Below, piece by piece: positions 5,440 through 16,210 of a stretch of 64,000 nt of DNA. Position numbers and translations under genes: made by a program. Source of the stretch: Escherichia coli. GTDB lineage: Bacteria > Pseudomonadota > Gammaproteobacteria > Enterobacterales > Enterobacteriaceae. The DNA is taken from NCBI RefSeq assembly GCF_041886205.1, contig NZ_CP169029.1, one strand, 5' to 3'. How positions within the stretch are numbered: the first letter of the stretch is position 1; each line of letters begins with the position of its first letter. The notes under the pieces are model-generated. The model worked only from the letters and a program-made list of their open reading frames with translations, made no database searches and was not told the origin of the DNA.

Positions 5440-6977
<1,538 letters not shown>

Positions 6978-14320: not shown

Positions 14321-14545
14321 TCTTTCCGCGTCTCATCTTTATCGGTGAGACGCACCCTCAAAATTTCTCCTTCACTCCATTGTCTTTTCGCTTTACTCTC
14401 GTTCATTCAACTTAAGTCTCCATTTTTTTGCATTACTGCTATCTGTCAGACCTCCGTTTTTCTGTAGATAAAACACTCTTTTTGACGTTTTTACAGACTA
14501 ATTGAGCGTGAAGTGTGCAAACGATAAAAGTGTGGGAAAAATTGT

Positions 14546-14573
14546 TTGACTTATAAGTCTCAGAAAGTAATAT
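14546..14573 (+). promoter_or_regulatory. Putative sigma-70 promoter of the serV-arg tRNA operon
   Basis: TTGACT (14546-14551), 16-nt spacer, TAATAT (14568-14573), followed by GC-rich discriminator gcgccacg; about 60 nt upstream of tRNA-Ser. Confidence 0.4.
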
Positions 14574-14635
14574 GTGCGCCACGCAGCGACGATGAGCAAT
14601 AAACAAGTTCTTCGAAGCACTCGTAAGAGGCGTGT

Positions 14636-14728
14636 GGTGAGGTGGCCGAGAGGCTGAAGGCGCTCCCCTGCTAAGGGAGTATGCGGTCAAAAGCTGCATC
14701 CGGGGTTCGAATCCCCGCCTCACCGCCA
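14636..14728 (+). tRNA. serV: tRNA-Ser (anticodon GCU)
   Basis: 93 nt, GGTGAGGTGGCCGAGAGGCTGAAGG...long variable arm...CACCGCCA, anticodon loop cuGCUaa. Confidence 0.9.
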
Positions 14729-14731
14729 TTT

Positions 14732-14808
14732 GCATCCGTAGCTCAGCTGGATAGAGTACTCGGCTACGAACCGAGCGGTCGGAGGTTCGAATCCTCCCGG
14801 ATGCACCA
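14732..14808 (+). tRNA. argV: tRNA-Arg (anticodon ACG), copy 1
   Basis: 77 nt GCATCCGTAGCTCAGCTGGATAGAGTACTCGGCTACGAACCGAGCGGTCGGAGGTTCGAATCCTCCCGGATGCACCA. Confidence 0.9.
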
Positions 14809-14872
14809 TCTCTTACTTGATACGGCTTTAGTAGCGGTATCAAAAAATCTGCAGTAAAGTAAGTTTCCCGAT

Positions 14873-14949
14873 GCATCCGTAGCTCAGCTGGATAGAGTAC
14901 TCGGCTACGAACCGAGCGGTCGGAGGTTCGAATCCTCCCGGATGCACCA
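14873..14949 (+). tRNA. tRNA-Arg (anticodon ACG), copy 2
   Basis: Identical 77-nt sequence to copy 1. Confidence 0.9.
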
Positions 14950-15011
14950 TCTCTTACTTGATATGGCTTTAGTAGCGGTATCAATATCAGCAGTAAAATA
15001 AATTTCCCGAT

Positions 15012-15088
15012 GCATCCGTAGCTCAGCTGGATAGAGTACTCGGCTACGAACCGAGCGGTCGGAGGTTCGAATCCTCCCGGATGCACCA
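15012..15088 (+). tRNA. tRNA-Arg (anticodon ACG), copy 3
   Basis: Identical 77-nt sequence to copy 1. Confidence 0.9.
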
Positions 15089-15224
15089 TATTCTCCGAAA
15101 TCTTCAGCAATGAAGGTATCGAAGAGGTAGCGGTATTAACCGCAGGCACCAGGGAGGATAACGTTGCGCCAGCAACGGCCCGAAGGGCGAGCCGCAAGGC
15201 GAGTAATCCTCCCGGATGCACCAT
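15089..15224 (+). repeat. ~136-bp repeat unit ending in a duplicate of the tRNA-Arg 3' end (partial tRNA)
   Basis: Sequence ...ttcagcaatgaaggtatcgaagag...ggataacgttgcgccagcaacggcccgaagggcga...aatcctcccggatgcacca; ~90 percent identical to 15364..15500. Confidence 0.7.
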
Positions 15225-15286
15225 CTCTTAATTGATATGGCTTTAGTAGCGGTATCAATATCAGCAGTAGAATAAGTTTTCCCGAT

Positions 15287-15363
15287 GCATCCGTAGCTCA
15301 GCTGGATAGAGTACTCGGCTACGAACCGAGCGGTCGGAGGTTCGAATCCTCCCGGATGCACCA
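15287..15363 (+). tRNA. tRNA-Arg (anticodon ACG), copy 4
   Basis: Identical 77-nt sequence to copy 1. Confidence 0.9.
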
Positions 15364-15500
15364 TATTCTCCGTAACCTTCAGCAATGAAGGTATCGAAGA
15401 GATAGCGGTATTAACCGCAGGCACCAGGGAGGATAACGTTGCGTCAGCAACGGCCCGAAGGGCGAACGCCAGTGAGTCATCCTCTCGGATGCACCATCTT
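15364..15500 (+). repeat. Second copy of the ~136-bp repeat ending in a degenerate tRNA-Arg 3' end
   Basis: Ends ...tcatcctctcggatgcacca; paralogous to 15089..15224. Confidence 0.7.
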
Positions 15501-15643
15501 CTCCCAAAAATTTCCTTCAAAAATATCTCATTTCTAAATAACTACTTTATCCATTTCCTGAATTTTCTTCTCCTTCGCCATCAGCGACAAAATCAAGCAA
15601 TTACGCTAAAGTAGCGTCATATTTTTCGACTTGCGAGAAGACC

Positions 15644-16210
15644 ATGTACGAGCGTTATGCAGGTTTAATTTTTGATATGGATGGCACAATCCTGGATACG
15701 GAGCCTACGCACCGTAAAGCGTGGCGCGAAGTATTAGGGCACTACGGTCTTCAGTACGATGTTCAGGCAATGATTGCGCTTAATGGATCGCCCACCTGGC
15801 GTATTGCTCAGGCAATTATTGAGCTGAATCAGGCCGATCTCGACCCGCATGCGTTAGCGCGTGAAAAAACAGAAGCAGTAAGAAGTATGCTGCTGGATAG
15901 TGTCGAGCCGCTTCCTCTTGTTGAAGTGGTGAAAAGTTGGCATGGTCGTCGCCCAATGGCTGTAGGAACGGGGAGTGAAAGCGCCATCGCTGAGGCATTG
16001 CTGGCGCACCTGGGATTACGCCGTTATTTTGACGCCGTCGTCGCTGCTGATCACGTCAAACACCATAAACCCGCGCCAGACACATTTTTGTTGTGCGCGC
16101 AGCGTATGGGCGTGCAACCGACGCAGTGTGTGGTCTTTGAAGATGCCGATTTCGGTATTCAGGCGGCCCGTGCAGCAGGCATGGACGCCGTGGATGTTCG
16201 CTTGCTGTGA
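15644..16210 (+). CDS. yqaB: HAD-family sugar phosphatase YqaB
   Basis: 188 aa, HAD motif I FDMDGT near N-terminus. Confidence 0.9.
   Translation: MYERYAGLIFDMDGTILDTEPTHRKAWREVLGHYGLQYDVQAMIALNGSPTWRIAQAIIELNQADLDPHALAREKTEAVRSMLLDSVEPLPLVEVVKSWHGRRPMAVGTGSESAIAEALLAHLGLRRYFDAVVAADHVKHHKPAPDTFLLCAQRMGVQPTQCVVFEDADFGIQAARAAGMDAVDVRLL

Follow-up and report, generated by a model that had tools for sequence, protein, structure and literature searches.

Two units behind tRNA-Arg genes of an Escherichia coli operon are very probably the tRNA-linked repeats raZ and raQ

Identity of the two units

The two units of about 135 nucleotides (nt) that follow the last two tRNA-Arg genes of an Escherichia coli tRNA operon are very probably the tRNA-linked repeats (TLRs) raZ and raQ of the arg operon, that is, dispensable cassettes bounded by 19-nt repeats, which would be co-transcribed with the tRNAs and processed. 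They lie in a window of 64,000 nt, the whole stretch of DNA that was analysed, and represent a repeat class that has already been described and named. TLRs were first seen by Egan and Landy (1978) and are without known function; their hallmark is a terminal stretch of 18–19 bp that repeats the 3' end of the gene before it without a mismatch (PMC8144298). The catalogue of Rudd (1999), as quoted in a later paper, holds 22 TLR copies at ten loci of strain K-12 (PMC8144298). The strain table of that paper lists the arg members as 'argY/Z/Q, raQ/Z/V' and also contains a strain deleted for all 22 TLRs (PMC8144298).

In the arg operon of K-12, units stand after argV, argZ and argQ, and the two units of the window are near-identical to those after argZ and argQ. 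Because of this near-identity and of synteny, they were assigned to raZ and raQ; they match these catalogued members, whose names were taken from the strain table (PMC8144298). Both units have the orientation of the tRNA genes in the operon, start at the first base after the CCA of a tRNA-Arg, end in a copy of the tRNA-Arg end (19/19 and 17/19) and have a core in common with the K-12 units of tyrTV, the lysT operon, lysV, proK, serX and rrnB.

The K-12 comparison set comprised the tyrT-tyrV locus and five other loci, each of which consists of a tRNA or 5S rRNA gene followed by one or more units. A common plan was found at these loci: the core AACGUUGC-nnnn-GCAACG, GCCC-GNA-GGGC, GAG is followed by a small hairpin of variable sequence, by GAGU(A/C)AUCC and then by the last 16–19 nt of the upstream gene itself. 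The three-hairpin core sits just 5' of the copied 3' end in all the K-12 TLR loci compared. In unit 1, the core pattern matches at 15175-15190, with 0.12 matches expected by chance.

Against the Rfam family RtT (RF00391), unit 1 scores 31.5–33.8 bits (E 3e-5 on the isolated unit) and unit 2 scores 22–26.5 bits (E 2e-3 on the isolated unit). The alignment of both covers the 3' half only, where model positions ~49–130 align well, and neither unit reaches the Rfam gathering score of 45 bits. The units are hence diverged relatives of RtT, below the Rfam cut-off.

The operon and the bounds of the units

The tRNA operon at 14636-15363 (plus strand) is the serV-argV-argY-argZ-argQ operon of E. coli, as follows from its tRNA content and from its neighbours, csrA and alaS upstream and yqaB, with the ATG at 15644, downstream. 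The operon stretch is 100% identical to that of E. coli strain 6EVA. The operon was reported to be essential and to contain all the tRNA-Arg(ACG) genes that E. coli has (PMC11480407). According to ARAGORN and Rfam, the four tRNA-Arg(ACG) genes are 77 nt each and all identical (Table 1). The spacers behind copies 1–3 measure 64, 62 and 198 nt, the last being the sum of the 135-nt unit and a 63-nt short spacer; similarly, the 280 nt between copy 4 and the ATG of yqaB are made up of the 133-nt unit 2 and a further 147 nt. The matches to promoter and terminator consensus sequences at the operon are no more frequent than in shuffled sequence. The sole terminator-like site sits 3' of unit 2, which is therefore placed within the predicted transcript. 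The short inter-tRNA spacers (14809-14872, 14950-15011 and 15224-15286) share GTAGCGGTAT.AA with the second-hairpin region of unit 1 at 15126-15139, a 13-nt local match (shuffle p ~0.005) which suggests that the short spacer and the 5' half of the unit are related.

Table 1 Features of the arg operon in the window
Feature	Position	Strand	Remarks
Sigma-70-like promoter candidate, TTGACT-16-TAATAT	14546-14573	+	Consensus scan only; 63 nt upstream of serV
serV, tRNA-Ser(GCU)	14636-14728	+	ARAGORN; Rfam tRNA 56.8 bits
tRNA-Arg(ACG) copy 1	14732-14808	+	ARAGORN, Rfam; followed by 64-nt short spacer 14809-14872
tRNA-Arg(ACG) copy 2	14873-14949	+	ARAGORN, Rfam; followed by 62-nt short spacer 14950-15011
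tRNA-Arg(ACG) copy 3, argZ position	15012-15088	+	ARAGORN, Rfam
Unit 1, raZ-type TLR (very probable), 135 nt	15089-15223	+	Directly after CCA of tRNA-Arg copy 3
Unit 1, 5' hairpins	~15100-15117 and ~15130-15143	+	Predicted fold
Unit 1, closed 3' domain	15146-15219	+	Outer helix GCACC.AGGGAGGAU / AUCCUCCC.GGAUGC, then ACCA
Unit 1, family core AACGUUGC-gcca-GCAACG, GCCC-gaa-GGGC, GAG	15160-15191	+	Common to K-12 TLRs after Tyr, Lys, Pro and Ser tRNAs and 5S rRNA
Unit 1, third hairpin GCC-gcaa-GGC	15191-15200	+	Follows the family core
Exact 19-nt copy of tRNA-Arg 3' end, T-loop AAT to CCA	15205-15223	+	19/19
Short spacer, 63 nt	15224-15286	+	Same type as spacers after tRNA-Arg copies 1 and 2; repeat family at 95%
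tRNA-Arg(ACG) copy 4, argQ position	15287-15363	+	ARAGORN, Rfam
Unit 2, raQ TLR (very probable), 133 nt	15364-15496	+	Directly after CCA of tRNA-Arg copy 4
Degenerate copy of tRNA-Arg 3' end, CATCCTCTCGGATGCACCA	15478-15496	+	17/19, 2 mismatches
Terminator-like hairpin with T-run, candidate	15603-15627	+	Consensus scan only; between unit 2 and yqaB

The original prediction had placed two paralogous units behind tRNA-Arg copies 3 and 4, and this was confirmed: the units are identical at 124 of 135 positions (92%), and a direct repeat of 188 nt spanning tRNA and unit (15003-15190 and 15278-15465) is 98% identical. The starts, at 15089 and 15364, had been placed correctly. The ends, given as 15224 and 15500, were 1 and 4 nt too far downstream; the copies of the 19-mer stop at 15223 and 15496, which are therefore the true ends. 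It had also been proposed that each unit terminates in a duplicate or degenerate copy of the tRNA 3' end, and such copies are indeed present (19/19 in unit 1 and 17/19 in unit 2). Exact matches to the 19-mer AATCCTCCCGGATGCACCA are found at the ends of all four tRNA-Arg genes and at 15205-15223, with 0.01 matches expected by chance. In raQ, the copy agrees at 18/19 positions in most other E. coli strains sampled and at 17/19 here. The long minus-strand open reading frames (ORFs) that had been remarked upon exist as well (14439-15224, 261 aa; 15104-15520, 138 aa), and they are considered spurious because they run antisense through tRNA genes.

Array variation among E. coli strains

The two flanks of the array were joined and compared by megablast with 5,425 complete E. 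coli genomes, and 59 rows were sampled evenly down the ranking. Counted from the first tRNA-Arg through the last unit, the arrays in these 59 rows span 355–1041 nt. The lengths observed were 903–904 nt (18 rows), 1037–1041 nt (12 rows), 628–635 nt (11 rows), 764–772 nt (6 rows), 673–675 nt (4 rows), 494–500 nt and 737 nt (3 rows each), and 355 nt and 611 nt (1 row each). When representatives were parsed, the combinations of tRNA-Arg genes and units were 4/4 (array L003), 4/3 (K-12), 4/2 (this window), 4/0 (array L011), 3/3, 3/2, 3/1 and 2/1. The natural arrays among these representatives thus contain 2–4 tRNA-Arg genes and 0–4 full units, and the variation in unit number between strains, on which the first reading of this DNA had turned, is real.

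In the unit-free array L011, the sequence that elsewhere trails the terminal unit abuts the last tRNA directly. The array of the window corresponds to that of K-12 minus raV, which is precisely absent with its downstream 64-nt spacer kept. Gain and loss are therefore exact, one unit between 19-nt repeats at a time, by recombination or slippage. Unequal crossing-over among the 77-nt tRNA genes, which are identical, is expected to change the number of tRNA-plus-spacer modules, and the two kinds of event together lead to the 2–4 tRNA-Arg genes and 0–4 units found in nature. At lysQ, lysV, proK and serX, the repeated unit takes in the terminator behind the tRNA; hence, TLR arrays behave as tandem duplications with their left boundary in the T loop. 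The suggestion of a duplication at the tRNA 3' end is upheld in this form, as the units belong to the TLR family, in which the repeat unit includes the last 18–19 nt.

The units are dispensable, since unit-free arrays occur naturally and a strain without any of the 22 TLRs has been engineered (PMC8144298). Deletions at short repeats are also seen within units: the unit of L006 is truncated at an internal GCACCA and that of L005 has lost 22 nt internally. In L004 and L006, a 40-nt 5' remnant of a unit persists inside a 102-nt spacer, and its hairpin is compensatorily changed (CAUCA/UGAUG).

All the tRNA-Arg copies examined are identical except for the fourth copy of L003 (1825-1901, E. coli 2017.06.05CC), where a C of the anticodon stem has become T (GAGTATTCGG versus GAGTACTCGG), giving a U-G pair. 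In E. coli KTa005 (5433-7319 of L012), an IS1 copy with an IS3-family element inside it is inserted ~20 nt 3' of the terminal unit and separates raQ from the operon terminator and yqaB. A Klebsiella pneumoniae chromosome filed as plasmid CP125156.1 (846-1073 of L139) carries one full unit followed immediately by a decayed second one, in which the 5' hairpins are kept and the core and the 3' copy are lost.

The natural dosage of tRNA-Arg(ACG) genes varies two-fold, from 2 to 4 copies, and the repeats make the operon a recombination hot spot. The units explain both the differences in arg array length between strains and the long spurious antisense ORFs.

Fold and covariation

The minimum free energy (MFE) of unit 1 is −61.3 kcal/mol (z = −6.9 against shuffled sequence) and that of unit 2 is −53.1 kcal/mol (z = −4.7). 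In the predicted fold, the 3' strand of the outer helix, AUCCUCCC.GGAUGC, is the copied tRNA end itself; the helix encloses the three core hairpins and leaves ACCA single-stranded. The architecture of unit 2 is the same, with the third inner hairpin degenerate. The 12-nt 5' strand GCACCAGGGAGG agrees at 10/12 positions with the 5' strands of the acceptor and T stems of tRNA-Arg (GCAUCCG+GGAGG), and the modelled 3' domain looks like an acceptor/T-arm minihelix in which the T loop is replaced by ~50 nt. At other loci, the 5' pairing strand tracks the host gene, being CGUGAAGGAU for Lys, GGGGAAGGAU for Tyr, GGGGGGAU for Ser and GAGGAU for Pro.

The proposal that the units are tRNA-derived pseudo-elements holds only for this part of the molecule: the 3' domain mimics an acceptor/T-arm helix, but the rest of the unit is without significant similarity to tRNA-Arg. 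The local alignment of the unit minus its terminal copy with the tRNA minus its 3' end was no better than that of shuffled sequences (p = 0.86), and neither ARAGORN nor the Rfam tRNA model called a tRNA on either unit. The tRNA likeness limited to GCACCAGGGAGG is not proof of a pseudogene, because pairing alone would require such likeness; it fits descent from a tRNA and selection for pairing with the copied end alike. The idea of a degenerate full tRNA with an insertion in the T loop was rejected, as the 5' two-thirds have no similarity to the tRNA-Arg body above chance.

Covariation was studied in 28 distinct Arg- and Lys-type 3' domains. In these, 93% of the paired cells are complementary, against at most 48% when the partners are slid. 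The outer-helix pair 10-71 occurs as GC, UA and AU, and the hairpin 3 pair 50-57 occurs as four pair types; the invariance of hairpins a and b is uninformative, because both were fixed by the search pattern with which the set was collected. Twelve full units from E. coli, Salmonella, Klebsiella, Enterobacter, Superficieibacter, Pseudescherichia (P. vulneris) and a soil metagenome-assembled genome (MAG) were also folded. The same architecture appeared in 9 of the 12 independent MFE folds (E. coli, Salmonella, Enterobacter, P. vulneris and the soil MAG), and the Klebsiella, the Superficieibacter and one Enterobacter unit did not share it. The 5' hairpins were judged from these independent folds, as the stems are out of register in the MAFFT alignment owing to the different loop lengths of E. 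coli and non-E. coli units. The sequence of the 5' half has diverged between genera, and complementary changes preserve its two hairpins, one with the stems CUUCA/UGAAG, AACAG/CUGUU and GACAG/UUGUC, the other with GCGGU/ACCGC, GCGA/UCGC and ACGGU/ACCGU. In all, stems covary across seven genera.

In P. vulneris, a C-to-U change in the tRNA-Arg 3' end is repeated in the copy within the unit, and the pairing partner has a compensating G-to-A change. Similarly, the Lys-type TLR of Citrobacter sp. R56 repeats the variant tRNA-Lys end of its own species. Part of the covariation in the outer helix could be due to concerted evolution with the adjacent tRNA and not to selection on the unit. Helix-breaking changes and internal deletions are found in K-12 raZ and in several terminal units, which argues that any constraint is weak. 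The covariation across genera suggests that the RNA fold is under constraint; this is a modest lead, which extends known work and is not a discovery.

The opposite view is that the units are neutral relics of tandem duplication, kept similar by concerted evolution (gene conversion) alone, in which the RNA structure has no role. It would suit the fact that the units are dispensable and highly polymorphic, the persistence of truncated or deleted versions (L004, L005 and L006), the construction of a strain lacking all TLRs and the absence of a known function (PMC8144298). However, both 5' hairpins have been kept by compensatory changes while their sequence diverged between genera, one position of hairpin 3 shows four pair types, and the three-hairpin core is kept in other genera as well as at every K-12 TLR locus that was compared, which is hard to explain without constraint. 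Neutral relics are therefore considered unlikely.

The hairpin 3 data also bear on a possible coding role of the units, for a small basic peptide such as the 'protamine-like protein' Tpr of the tyrT repeat. The tpr gene is annotated inside rttR in K-12, and one frame of the unit 2 core reads ..RQQRPEGR.. (ORF 15439-15537, TTG start, 32 aa). This frame is without an ATG start in either unit and is shorter than 30 aa in unit 1, however, and the exchanges in hairpin 3 between genera (GCC..GGC, GGC..GCC, UCG..CGA) would scramble the peptide and preserve the RNA pairing. A coding role is thus barely credible.

Relation to mobile elements

Williams, in 2002, is said to have placed the classic core of att sites in tRNA genes between the T loop and the CCA. 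The duplicated segment of the present units runs from the T loop to the CCA in the same way, its two copies mark exactly the stretch that some arrays have and others lack, and the bounded piece of DNA is thus flanked by directly repeated tRNA 3' ends. These features could be read as attL/attR-like scars of integrative elements whose past insertion at the end of tRNA-Arg left the 19-nt core in duplicate. The bounded DNA, however, is 135 nt in length and contains no ORF with a credible start on the transcribed strand, and no mobile-element genes or ends were found in it by the ORF, phage, plasmid and IMG/VR checks. The core is also found behind 5S rRNA and behind tRNAs for Tyr, Lys, Pro and Ser; at each locus it is joined to the end of the gene in question, and the 5' strand fits that end. 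Such pairing would not be retained by a scar, and the covariation of the stems across genera also speaks against one.

When the unit was compared by blastn with 50,697 phage records, no genuine homology was found; the four matches were Salmonella chromosome contigs or a 7-kb fragment. The plasmid matches were multi-megabase chromosomes that had been mis-filed (several of them in PLSDB) or chromosomal fragments, and of the 27,478 placements of the unit in E. coli genomes four are on plasmids. In IMG/VR, 2.9 million contigs were scanned with the core-motif pattern, and the module was present in 4 of the 48 matching stretches, two of them, those with locus sequence upstream, behind a host tRNA-Lys and two ending in a tRNA-type 3' end. 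No genuine homology to a viral contig resulted, the sequence being chromosomal or host flank. On this evidence, an origin of the units as att scars is highly improbable, and the att-like insertion footprint of the original prediction, which had not recognised the units as a published class, is not supported: there is no gene in the units, no phage or plasmid homology, and related units follow 5S rRNA. In annotation, the units should be labelled as TLRs (raZ, raQ) and not as genes, att sites or pseudogenes.

One IMG/VR provirus call in an isolate genome (1999-2250 of L163, reverse strand) covers a gltX-valUXY-lysV locus in which the TLR behind lysV has its terminal copy broken after CAUCC. Genes for a DNA invertase and for phage tail fibres lie ~370 nt beyond the broken copy, and neither an integrase nor att logic is evident at this locus, which may be a rearrangement junction.

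The three-hairpin module outside Enterobacterales

A scan of genome contigs with the core motif gave at least 120 loci. About two-thirds of these are chance matches in high-GC coding sequence, and the loci described here are examples and not a census. In an Rfam search of ten non-enteric core-motif loci, no family was found at the module. A tentative reading of the examples, which are a modest lead, is that the three-hairpin module may be older and wider than Enterobacterales.

In an Alcanivoracaceae MAG (JARGOL010000002.1; 7330-7723 of L106), two tandem units of 156 nt lie upstream of a tRNA-Ser(GGA). Each begins with the first 22 nt of the tRNA-Ser, GGTGAGGTGTCCGAGTGGTCGA, and contains the three-hairpin module as AACGUUGCCGC..GCGGCGACG, GCCC-gaa-GGGC, GAG, GGC-gca-GCC and GAGUA. 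These units are a 5'-linked counterpart of the TLR, outside Enterobacterales.

In Pseudomonas sp. PA27 (~10990-11060 of L097), the core motif ACGGCCCGAAGGGCGAG-CG(A/G)AGC-GAGUAA precedes AUGCUCAUUUAC..CUCGUAAA, and this arrangement is shared by two sites in Salinicola endophyticus (5830-5900 and 8150-8215 of L037). No tRNA or Rfam family was detected at these loci. The motif is probably an RNA or DNA element, because the short reverse-strand ORFs across it differ in frame between genera. A further form was seen in a Holophagaceae MAG (8500-8600 of L038) and an Acidobacteria MAG (810-910 of L119), where GCCC-GNA-GGGC and GAG are followed by a GGCC..GGCC hairpin and GAGUCAGCC. Here, the module is preceded by ..CCCACCA and a hairpin, and neither a tRNA or tmRNA on the module strand nor an Rfam match was found.

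Proposed RNA processing and function

The units share the orientation of the tRNAs and lie between the promoter-like site before serV and the sole terminator-like site, which suggests that they would be transcribed inside the tRNA precursor. Judging from position, folding and covariation, the transcribed unit would then fold into two 5' hairpins and a 3' domain. Each unit is predicted to end like a tRNA, with a helix and ACCA followed by a U-rich trailer of the same kind; tRNA 3' maturation should therefore also release the unit. An endonuclease cut just after the CCA, together with trimming by exonucleases, would liberate an RNA of ~135 nt as a by-product. Co-transcription is thus most likely, and so, by analogy, is release by tRNA-type 3' processing. 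The rtT RNA of the tyrT repeat was described as a discrete released RNA by Bosl and Kersten (1991), as that work is quoted in later papers (PMC3318445; PMC8144298). In the case of RrB, the 3' end of the released RNA lies 3 nt past the copy of the 5S end, and recognition by RNase E was suggested (PMC8144298).

In the literature on RttR and on the arg-operon spacers, nothing was found by way of functional data beyond changes in expression. A tentative and rather doubtful proposal is that TLRs, raZ and raQ among them, may be structured RNAs with a function and not inert spacers; in the model, they would mimic an acceptor/T-arm minihelix ending in ACCA and engage the machinery that recognises tRNA 3' ends or CCA. 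The conserved three-hairpin module would take the place of the T loop, and release would be proportional to the transcription of the tRNA. RNase P, RNase E, the CCA-adding enzyme, exonucleases or another factor could be the partner, and the RNA might act as a decoy, a buffer or a processing guide.

Comparison with known systems

The closest known system is formed by raV, raZ and raQ of K-12, with which the units share locus, order and strand, a near-identical sequence and the terminal 18–19 nt that copy the upstream 3' end. The window differs from K-12 in being without raV, with two units as opposed to three. In raZ, the outer helix is lost in K-12 (GGGAUGAU) but intact in the window, and raQ differs from that of most strains sampled by one extra mismatch in the 3'-end copy.

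RtT/rttR (RF00391), the 178-bp repeat of tyrT-tyrV, has the same core, the same position after a tRNA, the 19-nt tRNA 3' end and an outer helix formed by the copied end and an upstream strand. Unlike it, the arg units score below the gathering score of 45, and their 5' half is unrelated. The Tyr, Pro and Ser TLRs differ from the Arg/Lys type by a segment of ~40 nt that precedes the core, on the 3' side of the outer 5' strand, and includes a further copy of the T-arm-like GGUUCGA.

RrA, RrB and RrF, which follow 5S rRNA in rrnA, rrnB and rrnD, have the hairpin core (AACGUUGCgaagCAACGGCCCGGAGGG in rrnB) and a copy of the upstream 3' end. They were reported to be co-transcribed and processed, to lie between two terminators and to bind Hfq and CsrA in vitro via GGA motifs; unlike these, the tRNA-linked TLRs, including the arg units, have a CsrA-sponge score of <0.01 (PMC8144298).

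Finally, the att sites in tRNA genes used by P4-like and similar integrases resemble the units in that a direct repeat starting in the T loop bounds extra DNA. The units differ from such sites in being without integrase or cargo and without phage or plasmid homology, and in having a conserved RNA fold and relatives after 5S rRNA.
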